This document shows positions 1,985 through 8,032 of a stretch of 64,000 nucleotides of DNA, piece by piece. This stretch comes from Bacteroidales bacterium. GTDB lineage: Bacteria; Bacteroidota; Bacteroidia; Bacteroidales; WCHB1-69. The stretch spans positions 65,942 through 129,941 of the forward strand of contig JAFPVR010000010.1 of assembly GCA_017395245.1 (NCBI GenBank), read 5' to 3'. The notes beneath the pieces are model-generated. The model was not told the origin of the DNA. It was given only the letters and a program-made list of their open reading frames with translations, and searched no databases. How positions within the stretch are numbered: position 1 is the stretch's first letter; every line of letters starts with the position of its first letter. Made by a program: the position numbers and the translations under genes.

Positions 1985-2275
1985 ATGAACAAACATGCCG
2001 GAGAAAGAGTGAAAGAAGCGTTCGATGCATCAGGCCTGAGCGTAAGCGAGTTCGCGCAAAGGCTAAATTGCCATCGGCAAAACGTCTATGACATTTTCAA
2101 ACGTTACGACATAGAACTGTCTCTGCTTCAGCGCATCTCCAAGGTGCTGGAGCATGACTTCGTCACGGAATTGTATGGTGCAAAAGGCTCCAAGAAGACC
2201 CTCAAGTTCTCGGTTACGGTGGAGATTGCAGAGAACGGCCAATACACAGTGACCGATGTGAAGGTGGGGAAGTGA
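1985..2275 (+). CDS. small helix-turn-helix DNA-binding protein (XRE-like)
   Basis: LSVSEFAQRLNCHRQNVYDIFKR has an HTH pattern. 96 aa, 36 nt downstream of the PP2C gene. Confidence 0.55.
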   Translation: MNKHAGERVKEAFDASGLSVSEFAQRLNCHRQNVYDIFKRYDIELSLLQRISKVLEHDFVTELYGAKGSKKTLKFSVTVEIAENGQYTVTDVKVGK

Positions 2276-2381: not shown

Positions 2382-3827
2382 ATGGCAACGATCATCGGCA
2401 GAAAACAGGAACAGAAGGAACTCCGCCGCCTATATGAATCAGACGAGGCGGAGATGGTGGTGGTGTATGGCCGCCGTCGTGTAGGCAAGACATACTTGGT
2501 GAACCAAACCTTCTCGGAATGTGGTTTCGATTTCAAAGTGACAGGTCTGTATAAGAAACGTATGCCCCTCCAACTGGAGAACTTTGCTTTGGCTCTTCGT
2601 GAATATGCGGGCAACAAGTCACTTCCGATTGCCAAAAACTGGATGGAGGCCTTCGGGCAGCTGAAAGAGTTTCTGAAGGCAACCCGTACAGGAGACAAGC
2701 GTGTGCTGTTTTTTGACGAATTGCCATGGATGGACACCCGAGGCAGCATGTTTCTAAGCGCTTTTGAATGGTTCTGGAATGGATGGGGGAGTGCACAGCA
2801 GGATCTGATGCTCATAGTGTGCGGCAGTGCCACCAATTGGATCATCAACAAGCTGTTCAAACAGAAAGGGGGGCTCTATAATCGAGCCGGCAGCAAGATG
2901 TTTCTCCGTCCTTTCACCCTTGCCGAGACAGAGCAGTATCTTTTCAAACAGGGCATTGAAATGGAACGGTATGACATCGCCCAAGCCTACATGATCATGG
3001 GAGGGATACCCTACTACCTCAAACAACTTGAGCCCGGACGCACGTTAGCCGACAACATAGACAACTGTTTTTTCAAGAAAAACGGGAAACTGTGGGATGA
3101 GTTCGACAATCTGTATGAGACGCTCTTCGACCAGTCGGAATACTACTTGCGCATTGTGGAGGCCCTGGCCGGAAAGAGAATTGGTTTAACCCGCGATGAA
3201 ATACTGACGCTGACAAAGTTGCCGGACAACGGGTTGACCTCCAATGCTTTGAAGGATCTGGTGAAATGCGGGTTCCTTCGGGTTTATCAGTACTATGGGC
3301 GAAAAAACAAAACACAAACCTACCAATTGGCCGACTTCTACACCCTGTTTTACCTGCAATTCATCAGGGAAAACTACGGGCAAGACGAGCACTTTTGGAC
3401 CCACATGCTGGACAACCCCAAGAAGAACAACTGGCTTGGATACAGCTTTGAACAGCTGGTGAAAGACCATATCGAACAGGTAAAGCGGGCATTGGGCATC
3501 GGTTCTGTGCTCACTCGCCAGTCCACTTGGTTTGCCGAAAAACGGGATGTTGACGATGACAATGCCACCGGTGCGCAAATAGACCTGCTCATCGACCGCA
3601 GGGATAAGGCCATCAACGTGTGCGAAGCGAAATTCTACAGCGGCGAGTTTACCATTGACAAAGACTATTCGCTCAATTTGCGCAACAAGATTACCGCATT
3701 CAAATCGGTGACAAAGACGCGCAAGGCTATTGTGCCGACGATGATCACCACCTTTGGTGTGAAGCATAATGCTTACAGTGGCAGTATTCAACAGGAAGTC
3801 ACGTTGGATGATCTATTCGAACGATAG
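2382..3827 (+). CDS. AAA ATPase, archaeal-ATPase/DUF234-type ATP-binding protein
   Basis: IGRKQEQKEL...GRRRVGKT (Walker A) and VLFFDELPW (Walker B-like). Paralog of 13679..15127. Start moved to MATIIGRK, downstream of the -7 box. Confidence 0.8.
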   Translation: MATIIGRKQEQKELRRLYESDEAEMVVVYGRRRVGKTYLVNQTFSECGFDFKVTGLYKKRMPLQLENFALALREYAGNKSLPIAKNWMEAFGQLKEFLKATRTGDKRVLFFDELPWMDTRGSMFLSAFEWFWNGWGSAQQDLMLIVCGSATNWIINKLFKQKGGLYNRAGSKMFLRPFTLAETEQYLFKQGIEMERYDIAQAYMIMGGIPYYLKQLEPGRTLADNIDNCFFKKNGKLWDEFDNLYETLFDQSEYYLRIVEALAGKRIGLTRDEILTLTKLPDNGLTSNALKDLVKCGFLRVYQYYGRKNKTQTYQLADFYTLFYLQFIRENYGQDEHFWTHMLDNPKKNNWLGYSFEQLVKDHIEQVKRALGIGSVLTRQSTWFAEKRDVDDDNATGAQIDLLIDRRDKAINVCEAKFYSGEFTIDKDYSLNLRNKITAFKSVTKTRKAIVPTMITTFGVKHNAYSGSIQQEVTLDDLFER

Positions 3828-4146
3828 CATTATCCCAAATCAGCCCATTGGGAATCAATGAGATAGGCTCAACAACGGCATAATCCAAATAATTTCTGCC
3901 AAGAATCTCGCCCCGATCGAAATGCGGTGGCAAACATCCAACTGCCGTGAGGATGGAGTTCCGCAAAAGTGTTGAACACCATGGAATGAATTGCAGGTCA
4001 AGATAAGGCCGTGCCCATCACATATCCGGCAACATCATGAGATGCTTTGGCGGCGAATCCACCAATGTCTTAGAACTTATTACAAAGCGTAAAATCGCGG
4101 AATACGGTTTCGGGAGTATTTTTGCATTTTAAATTAAGAACAAGGA

Positions 4147-4186
4147 CCGACGGAGCCGGATGGGATATAACGCGGCAAGAAAAAGA
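4147..4186 (+). repeat. 40-nt conserved module, copy 1 (CCGACGGAGCCGGATGGGATATAACGCGGCAAGAAAAAGA)
   Basis: Near-identical to 4418-4457 and 4739-4774. Contains GGAG, 4 nt, ATG, then 9 conserved codons (MGYNAARKR). Confidence 0.85.
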
Positions 4187-4345
4187 ATGATTGCACAAAT
4201 TTCCGAAACCATTGACAGTGAAGGCTATCACATTGTGTCAGCAGTGACCGAAGAAGGCAACGTGGCTGTCGAAAAGTATTATTATGAAAGCGATAAAGAA
4301 CGTGCCTATGAAAATGCGCAGCAAAGAGCATTAGACAAGGATTGA
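4160..4345 (+). CDS. small acidic hypothetical protein (61 aa) headed by repeat module 1
   Basis: ORF MGYNAARKRMIAQISETIDSEGYH... An in-frame alternative ATG lies at 4187. Coding status uncertain. Confidence 0.3.
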   Translation: MGYNAARKRMIAQISETIDSEGYHIVSAVTEEGNVAVEKYYYESDKERAYENAQQRALDKD

Positions 4346-4417
4346 TGATTACAATCGGAGATGGTCGTCCTTAACTACTGTATTGTGTCAGGGACGACCA
4401 CTTTTTACACAATTAAA

Positions 4418-4457
4418 CCGACGGAGCCGGATGGGATATAACGCGGCAAGAAAAAGA
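4418..4457 (+). repeat. 40-nt conserved module, copy 2
   Basis: Same sequence as 4147-4186, 271 nt downstream of copy 1. Confidence 0.85.
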
Positions 4458-4459
4458 TT

Positions 4460-4654
4460 ATGGGACTGTATTACGGAAAAGTATGCGATCCTTCCTGTTA
4501 CCATTTTCAAAAATGCGATTATTGTATGTCCAAAGGGTGGGCTGCAAGAACGTGTGGCGATAAGTTGTTCTGTAGGCAAAAATTTCGCTGTAAATACGCT
4601 CATCATAGTGTTAATACGACATCTACTAATAAATGTCAAAATATGAATATGTGA
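4460..4654 (+). CDS. Cys-rich small ORF (64 aa, 9 Cys) immediately after repeat module 2
   Basis: MGLYYGKVCDPSCYHFQKCDYCMSKGWAARTCGDKLFCRQKFRCKY... It is out of frame with the module ATG (4431), whose own frame gives the overlapping 4431..4646 ORF. Confidence 0.3.
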   Translation: MGLYYGKVCDPSCYHFQKCDYCMSKGWAARTCGDKLFCRQKFRCKYAHHSVNTTSTNKCQNMNM

Positions 4655-4738
4655 TCAGTCTTTTCGGTTAATAAGAGGGACTATACCAGAATATAATTAG
4701 GCAAGACCTGCGAAGCCGTAAGAGCAGGGTATAAAATG

Positions 4739-4774
4739 CCGACGGAGCTGGATGGGATATAACGCGGTAAAAAA
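4739..4774 (+). repeat. 40-nt conserved module, copy 3 (slightly diverged)
   Basis: CCGACGGAGCTGGATGGGATATAACGCGGTAAAAAA, 321 nt after copy 2. It heads a 29-codon ORF at 4752..4841. Confidence 0.8.
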
Positions 4775-4951
4775 TAATATGCAAAAGATTTGGATACAGT
4801 TATTGAGAAAGAGAACGAAGACGCTTTGCCTTTTGAAATGACGTTGACTTTGTTGGTGAACTAATGAAGAACCGATGATAGCATAGGGGCCCTATAAGTC
4901 AAAAGAGAATGTAAGTGTGCGATCAAGTGGGCATTAAGAGAAAAAATAAAA

Positions 4952-6022
4952 ATGAAAAATCTGTTAAATACATGTTGGTTGACCATAAATAGAGATTGCA
5001 ACATCAGATGTGATTTCTGTTATGCTCAAAACAAGTTGTTTAGTAAACGAGAAACAATGTCATTTGAAATGGCGCAATCATTGATAGATATAGCCATCTC
5101 AAATGGTGTGGCTACATTCTTTCTCTTAGGAGGGGAACCTACCCTTCATCCTGCTATTATTGATATTCTGAGTTATATTACAAATAGAGATCGGAAAATT
5201 ATCGTTGTGACCAATGGAATAAAATTGCAGGATGTTAGTTTTTGTGAGGCTATCTCTAGGATTAATCAATCACAACTGATTACTATAGCCATTGCATTGA
5301 AAGGTTCTTCTAATTTGGAATACAAAAAGCTTTGTGGTGTTCCTGCTTATGATAAAGTTTTAAAAGCTGTCGAGAATTGTAGGAAGTTTAATCTAAAATT
5401 GAATTTTTCTTTCGTTATTACGTCTGAAAACGTATATGATTTAGAACAAATAGCAAATAAACTAAAAAATGATGGTATAAATGAAACCATTAGTTTCTCA
5501 TACTGTCATGATATAATAATTAGGGACAAATTTGAAATATTGGATAAATTACATCCTATAGAAATTGATTCTGTTTTTTCTGACAAATATGATTATGTTG
5601 ATAAGGTGTTAGAATCAAATATCGCTTTTCATCAAACATTGCCGTTGTGTATGTGTAATAAAACAATGTTTGATAAGATGGTTTTGCGAAAACAGATTAC
5701 CACTGCTTGTCAATTGCAAAAAAAGAATTCTGTCATTTTTGACACCGACGGGGGGATTCTCTTGTGTAACCATGTGAATTATAGCATTGGTAAGTATTTG
5801 GAAGATTTTATAGATGCAGAATCTTTTAAGAAGTATTGGCTTTCAAGCAAAGTTGAGGAATTGTTCAAAAGAATAACTACGATGCCTTCGCGAAAATGTT
5901 TAAATTGTAAAGATAGACAATTATGCGGAGGTGGATGTTGTATACAGTGGTTTGCATCGGATTTCGAATCCTATAATAATTATTTATTAACAATAAAGTC
6001 AAATTTAAATGGAAAAGATTGA
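4952..6022 (+). CDS. radical SAM enzyme with C-terminal SPASM domain (peptide-modifying maturase type)
   Basis: CNIRCDFCY (CxxxCxxC) at residues 16-24. GGEPTLHP. C-terminal C-x14-GILLC and CLNCKDRQLCGGGC (Cx2Cx5Cx3C). AT-rich gene. Confidence 0.88.
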   Translation: MKNLLNTCWLTINRDCNIRCDFCYAQNKLFSKRETMSFEMAQSLIDIAISNGVATFFLLGGEPTLHPAIIDILSYITNRDRKIIVVTNGIKLQDVSFCEAISRINQSQLITIAIALKGSSNLEYKKLCGVPAYDKVLKAVENCRKFNLKLNFSFVITSENVYDLEQIANKLKNDGINETISFSYCHDIIIRDKFEILDKLHPIEIDSVFSDKYDYVDKVLESNIAFHQTLPLCMCNKTMFDKMVLRKQITTACQLQKKNSVIFDTDGGILLCNHVNYSIGKYLEDFIDAESFKKYWLSSKVEELFKRITTMPSRKCLNCKDRQLCGGGCCIQWFASDFESYNNYLLTIKSNLNGKD

Positions 6023-6134
6023 AGAATTATTAAAAACAAGGCAAGCGACAGAGATTTCATTTGATGTTGAAATCAAAGGAATCTCTAATGTTCATTTTGA
6101 TCTTTGTAATGGGAATGATTGCATTAATGATTAA
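6009..6134 (+). CDS. 41-aa candidate precursor peptide (not in the ORF track)
   Basis: ATG at 6009 overlaps the rSAM stop by 14 nt. Translation is MEKIEELLKTRQATEISFDVEIKGISNVHFDLCNGNDCIND, read codon by codon. A strong hairpin terminator follows. Confidence 0.45.
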   Translation: MEKIEELLKTRQATEISFDVEIKGISNVHFDLCNGNDCIND

Positions 6135-6180
6135 CACACAGTCGGTCAATACCTTTTAAAAGCGGATTGAAAGTTGTCAA

Positions 6181-6218
6181 CTGTGATCCATATCCTATGG
6201 ATCACAGAGTGTATTTTT
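6181..6218 (+). terminator. intrinsic terminator candidate after the small ORF
   Basis: Perfect 12-bp stem CTGTGATCCATA / TATGGATCACAG with a 3-nt loop, followed by AGTGTATTTTT. Confidence 0.55.
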
Positions 6219-6273
6219 CCCCTTCATGGAAATCAAAGAGAGTGTTTGTCCTTTGATTTAGTGGACTTGTTAA

Positions 6274-6310
6274 GGGGGAAGGTGGTGTTATATACCCGAC
6301 CTCCCCTTTT
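6274..6310 (+). terminator. second hairpin plus TTTT
   Basis: GGGGA(A)GGT ... ACCTCCCC stem with one bulge, then TTTT. Confidence 0.35.
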
Positions 6311-6388
6311 AATGGTCAATGTCAAAAGCACGTGTGTTTCACAATGATGATGGTATGTGCCCAATTCTTTTTTATAATAACAAAGACT

Positions 6389-6871
6389 ATGTCCAATGCC
6401 CTTTTAATAGTAGATGTCCAGAACGGCTTCATCAACGAAAAGACGAAGCACATCCCAATGCTTGTTGAAAAACTGCAGTACGACTATAACTTTGTTATAG
6501 TCACACGCTTCATCAACCTGCCAGATTCACCGTACAGAAAGCTAATCAAGTGGGAACATCTGTCTCCTGAGACGGATGAGGTGGAATTGGCTTTCAAACC
6601 GAAGGAGGGTGCCGTTATCATTGACAAATACATCTATTCCTGCATTGATGAACGTTTCATGCTTTTGTTAAAGGGAAATGGGATAGATGCGGTGGATATT
6701 TGTGGCATTGATACAGATATTTGCGTCACCAAATGTGCCGTGGATCTTTTCGAGCGGAACATTACGCCATACGTTTTGAAGGACTATTGCGCCACACATG
6801 CCGATGCGGATATTCAGGAGGCTGCGTTGGTGATATTGGCAAGATATATCGGAAAATCTCAAATCATTTGA
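6389..6871 (+). CDS. isochorismatase-family cysteine hydrolase (nicotinamidase-like)
   Basis: LLIVDVQNGF and ICGIDTDICVTKCA (catalytic Cys context). Start moved to MSNALLIVD. Confidence 0.8.
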   Translation: MSNALLIVDVQNGFINEKTKHIPMLVEKLQYDYNFVIVTRFINLPDSPYRKLIKWEHLSPETDEVELAFKPKEGAVIIDKYIYSCIDERFMLLLKGNGIDAVDICGIDTDICVTKCAVDLFERNITPYVLKDYCATHADADIQEAALVILARYIGKSQII

Positions 6872-6874
6872 TGT

Positions 6875-8032
6875 ATGGAAGCCTATTGTACTAGCATAAT
6901 CCCTGTTAAAGTCCCTAATGCGAAATTAACAAGGGAAATAATCAATATCTGCAAAAATCACCAGTTGCTGTCAGATTATTGCAATTATAGAGGGGCAATC
7001 AACCTGAAGGCTATTCCTGATATTAATATCAAGTCATTTGATTTCTACTATATCCCTTCCCCGAAAACAGATATCCAATGTGCTTTCAGTGAAAGTACGT
7101 TAACCCTTATCCTTACGTGGAAAAATACCTACAAAGATTACTGCTCTTTGGTGAATCAATCTTTGGAAGAGAGGAAAAAGCTCGTCAAAAGGGTTCTTGA
7201 GTATAAGCCGAAGGATGAAAAGCTTGTCCCATTCATGAAATTACTAGAGGAATATAGAAATAAAGGTTTGAGTATCAACTATGCATTTACTTTCTACTCG
7301 ATCTGCGACGAGAACTTTACAGAAGCATCCGAACAGCATTTGAAAGTGTTAGCGGAGCCTTCGGTGATCAATATGGACGATATGTTGTCTTCCTTGGGTA
7401 CATCTGTCCAGTATGATTCAAAGACCAAAATCAATAAGGAAATCTTGGAAACGATAAAAGATTTTGACCTCTATAGCGAACAAAAGACGTTCATAACCTG
7501 GGCATCCATTGTGTCGATGTCGAAAAGTAAAGAGATCTTTGTAAAAAATCATATTACATTGACACTAATGGAATTACTCATACAAAGGATATGGAATCTT
7601 TGTTATTCGCAAAACAATAGTCTGAACAATTGTATAACCAATATCAAGAAATGCTCCAAAGATATTAACAAAATCATCATTGACACCTATAGGATTTTAA
7701 TTGAATCCAAAAATTGTATTTCTGCCACCTATTCCAGCCGGTTGTCGGGCATCTATTCGGCAATTGTTGAATCCAGTCAGCTCCCCAAAAACATTGAAGA
7801 CTTGGAACAGAAACTCAATTATCTGATTGTGTTTACGAATAGCATCAACCAAAACAAGAACAGACGTTTGCAACAAGGTTCGGAAATATTACTCTTCCTT
7901 ATTGCTATCGCCCAGATTGTTCCTCTGTTTTTCAATCTCCCTATTGTAACTCATAATATGATTAGCATCGGGACAGTTGTCGGTATTTGTGTCTTGGGCG
8001 TGTTGTTGATACGGTCAAGATACCACAATTAG
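6875..8032 (+). CDS. hypothetical protein with a long helical region and a C-terminal two-TM hairpin (CorA-like topology, no GMN motif)
   Basis: Starts 3 nt after the hydrolase stop. C-terminus is EILLFLIAIAQIVPLFFNLPIVTHNMISIGTVVGICVLGVLLIRSRY. Very AT-rich. Confidence 0.55.
   Translation: MEAYCTSIIPVKVPNAKLTREIINICKNHQLLSDYCNYRGAINLKAIPDINIKSFDFYYIPSPKTDIQCAFSESTLTLILTWKNTYKDYCSLVNQSLEERKKLVKRVLEYKPKDEKLVPFMKLLEEYRNKGLSINYAFTFYSICDENFTEASEQHLKVLAEPSVINMDDMLSSLGTSVQYDSKTKINKEILETIKDFDLYSEQKTFITWASIVSMSKSKEIFVKNHITLTLMELLIQRIWNLCYSQNNSLNNCITNIKKCSKDINKIIIDTYRILIESKNCISATYSSRLSGIYSAIVESSQLPKNIEDLEQKLNYLIVFTNSINQNKNRRLQQGSEILLFLIAIAQIVPLFFNLPIVTHNMISIGTVVGICVLGVLLIRSRYHN

Follow-up and report, generated by a model that had tools for sequence, protein, structure and literature searches.

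A candidate structured RNA element ahead of Bacteroidales start codons, arrayed three times at a radical SAM/peptide locus

In a 64,000-nucleotide (nt) stretch of a Bacteroidales genome (GenBank assembly GCA_017395245.1, contig JAFPVR010000010.1, positions 65,942–129,941 of the forward strand; hereafter the window), a motif of ~42 nt occurs three times, each time ahead of a different small open reading frame (ORF) and upstream of a gene for a radical S-adenosylmethionine (rSAM) enzyme. The best reading of the data is that this motif is an undescribed structured RNA element of Bacteroidales 5' untranslated regions (UTRs), of which the window holds a three-copy array heading an rSAM/peptide locus. 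We put the probability that it is a cis-acting element of the translation-initiation region, working at the RNA level, at about 0.65. Behind this reading stand the repeat itself, a covarying helix around an invariant loop, a strict orientation and spacing relative to start codons, a bias towards genes of exported proteins and a lineage-restricted spread in multiple copies; from these we infer transcription of the motif, its action as RNA and the direction of regulation. The Rfam 15 covariance models gave no match at E up to 1 in window positions 3500–7000 and matches at chance level only in four other loci, and a literature search with the core sequence and through Bacteroides UTR and hairpin papers found no description of the motif.

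Motif architecture and helix covariation

The window copies form a direct repeat of 41 nt, found by a repeat search, at 4146–4186, 4417–4457 (100% identical) and 4738–4778 (83%), with spacings of 271 and 321 nt. The 29-mer core, allowing up to three mismatches, occurs three times in the window compared with 0.00 expected from 100 shuffles. Three modules at these spacings, with similarity lost abruptly at both edges and a different ORF behind each, had been reported in the original prediction, made from the sequence of the window; the repeat search, the shuffles and the ORF list bear out all of this. The consensus reads AAAACCGAYG(G)N, then a stem of four base pairs (bp) around a near-invariant loop, AUGGNAUAUAAC, and an A-rich tail. 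Folded as RNA, the element would run from an A-rich lead through an invariant single strand (CCGAYG), a 4-bp helix (GCCG/CGGC in the window) and a 14-nt loop to an A-rich tail leading into the start codon.

For the pairing analysis, copies were anchored on the near-invariant loop. Among the 49 copies from the window's family, four flanking positions are paired in 46–48. A covariance model (R1) was used to search other Bacteroidales families; the helices recovered from three of them are GCUU/AAGC, GCUC/GAGC, GUCC/GGAC and ACUC/GAGU, and GCGC/GCGC, GUUC/GAAC and CUC/GAG were found later. Across 97–101 distinct copies, 94% of the cells are paired and all four pairs show changes on both sides. The number of doubly changed helix cells (21–23, against ~3 in shuffles) is reached by none of 500 shuffles, and sliding the partners lowers pairing to 37% or less in the four-pair count and 44% or less in the seven-pair count. 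Covariation analysis had been suggested as a check when the module was first noticed, and its outcome is thus strong covariation in every pair of the helix.

A second, tertiary contact is possible. The CCG of the 5' tail could pair with UGG of the loop (3 bp) and fold the element into a compact H-type pseudoknot. All 101 copies keep this complementarity; the columns concerned hold just two variants, and both preserve the pair (C–G to A–U in locus L091, G·U to G–C in locus L145). At the next position, of the eight copies in which N24 is C, seven have G at N6.

All three window copies are on the plus strand and were located with model R1. Copy 1 (4141–4182, 60.2 bits, E 8e-10; repeat family D1) has its CCG tail at 4147–4149, its stem formed by GCCG 4155–4158 with CGGC 4173–4176, and its loop at 4159–4172. 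Copy 2 (4412–4453, 61.1 bits) pairs 4426–4429 with 4444–4447. In copy 3 (4733–4774, 52.1 bits), GCUG at 4747–4750 faces CGGU at 4765–4768, and the helix is kept by two G·U pairs.

Spacing to start codons and promoter boxes

Every copy of the motif is oriented towards a start codon, which lies 13–16 nt beyond the end of AUAAC in 112 of 131 copies (85%; mode 14), and the helix therefore ends ~9 nt (7–11) 5' of the AUG. So tight a two-sided spacing is the strongest functional clue available, and it suggests the geometry of translation initiation rather than that of promoters, RNA processing or recombination. A hidden Markov model scan of the whole 3.78-Mb assembly found just four copies, the three in the window and one on another contig before a gene for a secreted FGE/SUMF1-like protein. 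The search through the genome and its relatives that had been proposed at the outset thus returned four copies at home and many in related Bacteroidales. Together with the strict orientation and spacing, this low number rules out a dispersed DNA repeat of the miniature inverted-repeat transposable element or repetitive extragenic palindromic type; a common dispersed repeat unlinked to small ORFs, which had been named as the outcome that would undo the original prediction, is not what was found, since copies are tied to start codons.

TAnnTTTG is the −7 element of Bacteroidetes sigma-A promoters. TTTG or TAnnTTTG lies 14–29 nt 5' of the motif in ~45 of 97 distinct copies. These include copy 1 of the window, where the box read from the sequence (TATTTTTG, 4117–4124, plus strand) matches TAnnTTTG and is the presumed promoter of the array. 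Because of the upstream −7 box, the motif is probably transcribed, beginning ~10–20 nt into the mRNA, and probably forms part of the 5' UTR. Of the remaining copies, some stand directly behind a gene, some behind a terminator-like hairpin and some behind the terminator of a conserved non-coding RNA (ncRNA).

Terminator-like hairpins immediately 5' of copies, and the presence of one copy per cistron in tandem arrays, would also suit an RNA processing or stability site, at which cleavage or protection would turn a polycistronic transcript into individually stable monocistronic mRNAs, or an antitermination site that recruits a processive factor and so allows read-through of an internal terminator. 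The succession of a single-stranded box and a hairpin resembles lambda-type nut sites. Neither mechanism explains the 13–16 nt spacing seen in 85% of copies or the exported-protein bias, however, and most copies are single and stand at the head of a transcript, which makes both explanations quite unlikely.

Start codons and genes downstream of the motif

The module contains an ATG of its own, which the original prediction listed together with the conserved codons behind it. A second ATG lies 10–12 nt 3' of every module copy in the window, at 4187, 4460 and 4779. These are likely the start codons in use, because homologues of ORF1 are called as 52-residue proteins beginning with MIAQ and ORF2 opens at 4460 in another frame. 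The GGAG of the module, which had been described as conserved and Shine–Dalgarno (SD)-like, is variable in relatives. Across the 97 distinct copies it reads GGNG, where N is T (35 copies), G (28), A (26) or C (8); half of the copies lack one G; and the site lies ~30 nt before the ATG used, not 5–10 nt. An SD identity is thus rejected.

The internal ATG is also the basis of the first of two interpretations offered originally, a multi-precursor array in which ribosomes would read the MGYNA(A/V) codons as a common leader, or as an upstream ORF, for precursors of ribosomally synthesized and post-translationally modified peptides (RiPPs) processed by the rSAM enzyme. In window copies 1 and 3, this ATG and the downstream ORF share a frame, and syntenic loci do combine Cys-rich peptides with rSAM enzymes. 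However, among 36 copies from related genomes the frame is shared in about one third, as expected by chance, and the MGYNA frame extends for anything from 7 to more than 500 codons with no conserved length or stop. The gene behind copy 2 uses another frame, and its homologue keeps all Cys residues; ORF1 homologues start after the motif; ACG replaces ATG in one copy, and in L091 the ATG is followed directly by TGA. Moreover, it is the nucleotides that are conserved, between flanks that covary, and ~75% of the downstream genes encode signal-peptide proteins. A shared leader is highly improbable on these grounds.

The bias towards export was quantified with a simple rule for signal peptides. Signal-peptide or lipoprotein-like N-termini are encoded by 93 of 124 unique downstream genes (75%), against 24% of a background consisting of ORFs of at least 200 residues from the window's own genome under the same rule. 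Several of the remaining N-termini are plainly hydrophobic too. The non-exported minority comprises rSAM operons, headed by genes for small Cys-rich or acidic proteins, and vWA operons.

In one such operon, found in three loci (L051, L038 and L043), the gene behind the motif encodes a conserved acidic protein of 76–78 residues (MAERRSTYVF...) and is followed by genes for a small membrane protein, a 90-residue protein, a vWA-domain protein and a tubulin/FtsZ-like GTPase. This operon may be a conflict or stress system. Gene callers often run ORFs into the motif, which gives rise to prefixes such as MGRWGITGTII or ...NRRADGIELATNT (P0001 and P0006, proteins from public gene calls), and the annotated N-termini of motif-headed genes are therefore often wrong. 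A simple annotation rule follows: the true start codon lies 13–16 nt after AUAAC, and MGYNA extensions are artefacts.

The window array and the rSAM locus

All features of the locus described here are on the plus strand. ORF1 (4187–4345) encodes a 52-residue acidic protein (MIAQISETIDSEGYH...) with six homologue clusters at 75–100% identity; in four of the six, the homologue is called as a 52-residue protein starting with MIAQ directly 3' of the module. One ORF1 homologue heads a different operon of an rSAM enzyme and a 39-residue peptide (L142), itself preceded by the motif. Between ORF1 and copy 2, at 4362–4408, lies a strong hairpin followed by CTTTTTAC (inverted repeat I8), terminator-like and immediately 5' of copy 2. 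A 111-nt segment that includes this helix has a minimum free energy (MFE) of −29.6 kcal/mol (z = −2.07); the hairpin is not in the list of the terminator scan, as its loop exceeds the size that the scan allows.

ORF2 (4460–4654) encodes a 64-residue protein with nine Cys (MGLYYGKVCDPSCYHFQKCDYC...) in a frame other than that of the module ATG. Such an ORF had been pointed out originally, and the call is supported by a homologue (P0001) that has 83% identity, keeps the Cys residues and again has a motif copy 5' of its gene. The third ORF of the array (4779–4841, 20 codons, MQKIWIQLLRKRTKTLCLLK), taken from the ORF list, is doubtful and possibly a remnant: it has no protein-family match, and no homologue among the collected motif loci.

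The rSAM gene follows at 4952–6022 (Pfam Radical_SAM, 1.7e-21). The enzyme is SPASM-like and fits no named family, with sub-threshold NCBIfam matches only, to many rSAM/SPASM maturases. A Cys-containing ORF of 41 residues from the ORF list (6009–6134) overlaps its stop codon and is the more likely substrate of the enzyme; the rSAM gene and 39-residue peptide of L142 form an analogous pair. A terminator-like hairpin found by the terminator scan at 6181–6207 (12-bp stem and T-rich tail) marks the end of the unit. The region 4500–6500, that is, the rSAM gene and its surroundings, is strongly AT-rich (31–37% GC compared with 43–54% in the flanks).

Loci syntenic with the window share the order PP2C phosphatase, small helix-turn-helix (HTH) gene, variable gene, promoter and motif. 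In six of them (L055, L046, L032, L048, L041 and L079), the genes headed by the motif encode small Cys-rich or zinc-ribbon-like peptides, and genes for rSAM/SPASM enzymes come after them. Precursor-like genes adjoin an rSAM enzyme in the window and these six loci, not in most of the ~130 motif copies. The rSAM link of the original prediction thus stands for this group of loci, and falls as a general property of the motif, most copies having no rSAM neighbour.

Two peptide families were seen in passing. Two Bacteroidales families share a conserved Cys-repeat peptide (…STCSCSCNCTCGCNCNAPILQNRF…), at ~2630–5310 of L055 and 1510–1782 of L119 in locus coordinates; in L055, two rSAM/SPASM-like genes come next, together with a diverged second copy of the motif, and this locus looks like a CxC-repeat RiPP system. 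A conserved zinc-ribbon-like peptide of 40–42 residues with the pattern CxxC...CC(P) (MSEQMGQCKWCGxYF...GGYCCPAHY) is encoded by the first gene after the motif in L032, L048 and L079, which are different rSAM operons.

Distribution and junctions

An exact 22-mer matched, in a collection of species representatives, only uncultured Bacteroidales metagenome-assembled genomes from rumen, horse and deer gut. Within the window's family, the motif is present in 30 of 152 genomes and five of 22 genera, with no control hits, and a sample of one or two genomes per family across the order added three further Bacteroidales families. The motif is absent from a sample of 150 genomes of the phylum that come almost entirely from other orders. 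Genus g111, which belongs to another family, is positive in 16 of 39 genomes, with 1–12 copies each, some of them in arrays with a spacing of ~450 nt.

Homology between loci either begins at the 5' edge of the motif (−7 to −33), where the same gene stands in different upstream contexts, or ends at +20 to +45, counted from the start of the motif, where the same context precedes different genes. This is the origin of the abrupt module edges seen in the window, and it shows that units of motif plus gene are reshuffled between loci. In one case (L037, compared with the copy elsewhere in the window's genome), a plain deletion has joined the motif, with the opening codons of the signal peptide, to the gene that follows.

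Such breaks, together with the tandem arrays, could be those of a recombination or cassette junction, either integron-like or driven by homology. The neighbouring ORFs of the arrays examined include no integrase or recombinase, however, and the motif has no attC-like R''/R' inverted core and no complementary GTTRRRY partner; it fits neither an attC nor a dif-like site. Strict orientation and spacing to the ATG, and covariation of RNA type with G·U pairs, point to a function in the transcript, and selection by itself would also leave breakpoints where a conserved element begins and ends. Selection for function, with occasional homologous exchange, is sufficient to account for the junctions, and a recombination site is very unlikely. 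The second of the original interpretations, a conserved 5' RNA or recombination module capping variable cassettes, therefore survives in its first half: a covarying hairpin precedes unrelated genes and homology breaks at its edges, as for an RNA module.

An upstream HTH gene and other candidate partners

A recurrent upstream neighbour of the motif is a small Cro/C1-type HTH gene, which in the window encodes 96 residues (1985–2275, plus strand; Pfam HTH_3, E 8e-5). Homologues lie upstream on the same strand at 10 of 43 motif loci in the window's family, and 100–150 nt upstream of at least 13 motif copies in genus g111. In that genus the HTH gene is present in 15 of 16 motif-positive compared with six of 23 motif-negative genomes, counts that are not independent because the genomes are related. 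The HTH protein is no more than a candidate partner or co-regulator of the motif.

These observations would also suit a different model, in which the motif is a DNA-level operator or an alternative-sigma promoter, bound for example by the HTH protein, and marks out a transcriptional regulon of genes for exported proteins, all with very short leaders. The adjacency on the same strand at many loci of two distant families would fit, and so would several array copies that stand behind a terminator with no −7 box in between. Against it, compensatory changes in the helix arms are unexpected for a protein–DNA half-site, and the conserved part is asymmetric rather than palindromic. The canonical −7 boxes 5' of about half of the copies put the motif inside the transcript. 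In addition, two motif-positive genomes (G010 and G069, three to four copies) have no HTH homologue at E 1e-8, HTH paralogues without the motif exist (e.g. beside an extracytoplasmic function (ECF) sigma gene), and the co-occurrence is among related genomes. Comparison by eye with sigma-54, sigma-70 and ECF promoter consensus sequences gave no fit. All in all, a DNA element is unlikely.

As an obligate partner, the HTH protein is weakened by the motif-positive genomes that do not have it; its adjacency is nevertheless kept across families. The family (window 1985–2275; L058 1450–1758; L059 1417–1707; many g111 loci) has several copies per genome and a conserved ...NxYxxF...LLxxISxxLxxDFF pattern. 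Its members often lie immediately upstream of motif-headed genes, and one paralogue adjoins an ECF sigma/anti-sigma pair.

Three other candidate partners were rejected. A CsrA target site does not fit, as PF02599 was not found in the 97.6%-complete genome, whereas control genomes scored. Matches to the complement of the loop, sought in the same genome for an antisense small RNA, occurred at chance level (~60 found compared with ~61 expected by our own calculation), and none was convincing. The ncRNA that lies 5' of a set of copies termed class B has no conserved complementarity to the loop. Small-subunit ribosomal RNA was sought in three genomes (G000, G240 and G329), and none was found.

This ncRNA deserves a separate description. 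Its gene is conserved and lies directly upstream of many copies, at ~1590–1860 of L004 (minus strand; contig C5 of the same genome as the window) and in 13 other loci (e.g. L050, L033 and L029). It has its own TAnnTTTG promoter and terminator and no Rfam match at E up to 1. Its last ~185 nt form a rod-like hairpin that has internal loops and 12 covarying pairs and resembles 6S RNA in shape. Class B copies, such as that of L004 (1480–1590, minus strand), have upstream of them a CCGGCAC that complements GUGCCGG, the 5' strand of the helix. This CCGGCAC is predicted to compete with the motif helix (MFE −26.3 kcal/mol) and could form an alternative structure; it occurs only in copies downstream of the 6S-like RNA.

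Discussion

Initiation in Bacteroidia depends on upstream adenines and low structure, and the ribosomes make no use of SD sequences (PMC7797042, PMC6847099, PMC13000457). In the translation-initiation reading, the motif helix, with the A-rich stretch behind it, would occupy the site that the SD:anti-SD helix takes in other bacteria, and would set or regulate initiation at the gene that follows. It could do so in two ways. The motif may be an operator for a factor acting in trans that would mask or expose the start region; this factor could be a small ligand or a protein, with the neighbouring HTH protein as one possibility. Alternatively, it may be a structure that docks on the platform of the 30S subunit and positions the AUG. 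In the window, a single sigma-A promoter (4117–4124) would drive an operon of three cistrons, each with its own motif, followed by the rSAM gene and the 41-residue peptide.

The second of these models can be put in a stronger form: an SD-independent ribosome-docking structure that places the AUG, 9 ± 1 nt downstream, in the P site, and so provides mRNAs for exported proteins and peptide natural products with a dedicated initiation route, possibly regulated by the HTH protein. In this form the proposal is tentative and rather improbable. The patchy spread of the motif, with sister species that carry 0 or 12 copies, is unexpected for a pure ribosome-docking element.

Several further observations weigh against the translation-initiation reading. 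Transcription start sites, and transcription of the motif, were deduced solely from the positions of promoter boxes. Copy 2 of the window and some array copies elsewhere lie behind a terminator-like hairpin with no visible −7 box, an arrangement that would fit a promoter role of the motif itself. Fitting the alignments behind the pairing counts to the model biases them towards the modelled helix, although the raw sequences themselves show the double changes. The isolated hairpin is thermodynamically weak (−5.9 kcal/mol, z = −0.38); weak isolated hairpins are common among elements that are stabilized by a partner. No trans-acting partner was identified among the HTH, CsrA, antisense and ncRNA candidates examined. 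Finally, just two or three independent events support the pseudoknot, and L163 provides a counter-example (A7·G23).

How start codons are chosen in Bacteroidia without SD pairing is an open question on which the motif bears. To our knowledge, very few cis-regulatory RNAs have been described in gut and rumen Bacteroidales. At ~40 nt the motif is compact; it covaries clearly, keeps a strict geometry with respect to the AUG and has a coherent cargo of secreted proteins, lipoproteins and RiPP-like operons. If it is an operator that binds a regulator, it would define a new post-transcriptional regulon for cell-surface and secreted products; if it docks on the ribosome, it would represent a new mode of bacterial initiation. 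The motif is also a candidate portable expression part for Bacteroidales.

Comparison with known systems

Multi-precursor RiPP loci with rSAM/SPASM enzymes (ranthipeptide or PapB-like, with CxxxC repeats) resemble the window and its syntenic loci in having small Cys-rich genes and rSAM/SPASM genes, here behind the motif. They differ in that the repeated unit here would be an untranslated RNA element, not a leader peptide, and in that most motif copies are unrelated to rSAM genes.

Among small structured RNAs, the preQ1-I and guanidine-III riboswitches are similar in size (35–45 nt) and share a short covarying helix, highly conserved loop nucleotides and a possible H-type pseudoknot, as well as an A-rich 3' tail that runs into the start region and a 5'-UTR position near the promoter. 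Unlike these riboswitches, the motif has no Rfam match, its pseudoknot would use the 5' tail rather than the 3' tail, and its distance to the AUG is fixed within ~1–2 nt, which a riboswitch does not need. As in riboswitches generally, a covarying structure (0/500 shuffles) occupies what the upstream −7 box suggests is a 5' UTR. The downstream genes, exported proteins with no assigned function, RiPP-like operons and vWA operons, are diverse and do not point to one ligand or pathway.

The GGA hairpins bound by CsrA/RsmA and the operators of phage coat protein and RegA are likewise short hairpins with conserved loops at the ribosome-binding regions of many unrelated mRNAs. They also have GGA/GGAU-like loop letters and several copies per genome. 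The loop of the motif, however, is 14 nt long with a different consensus, and its genome has no CsrA. Lambda-type nut sites (boxA and boxB) share with the motif a conserved single-stranded box separated by a few nt from a small hairpin with a conserved loop, at the 5' ends of operons that contain terminators. They differ from it in showing no sequence similarity and in lacking a fixed distance to the AUG, and no N-like or specialized NusG factor was identified here.

Bacteroidia ribosomes sequester the anti-SD sequence (PMC7797042). The SD:anti-SD helix of other bacteria and the motif helix both end ~9 nt (7–11) before the start codon, at a distance that is tightly kept. Unlike the SD:anti-SD helix, the motif helix would be intramolecular rather than paired with 16S rRNA, with a sequence that covaries from copy to copy, and the GGAG of the motif is variable.

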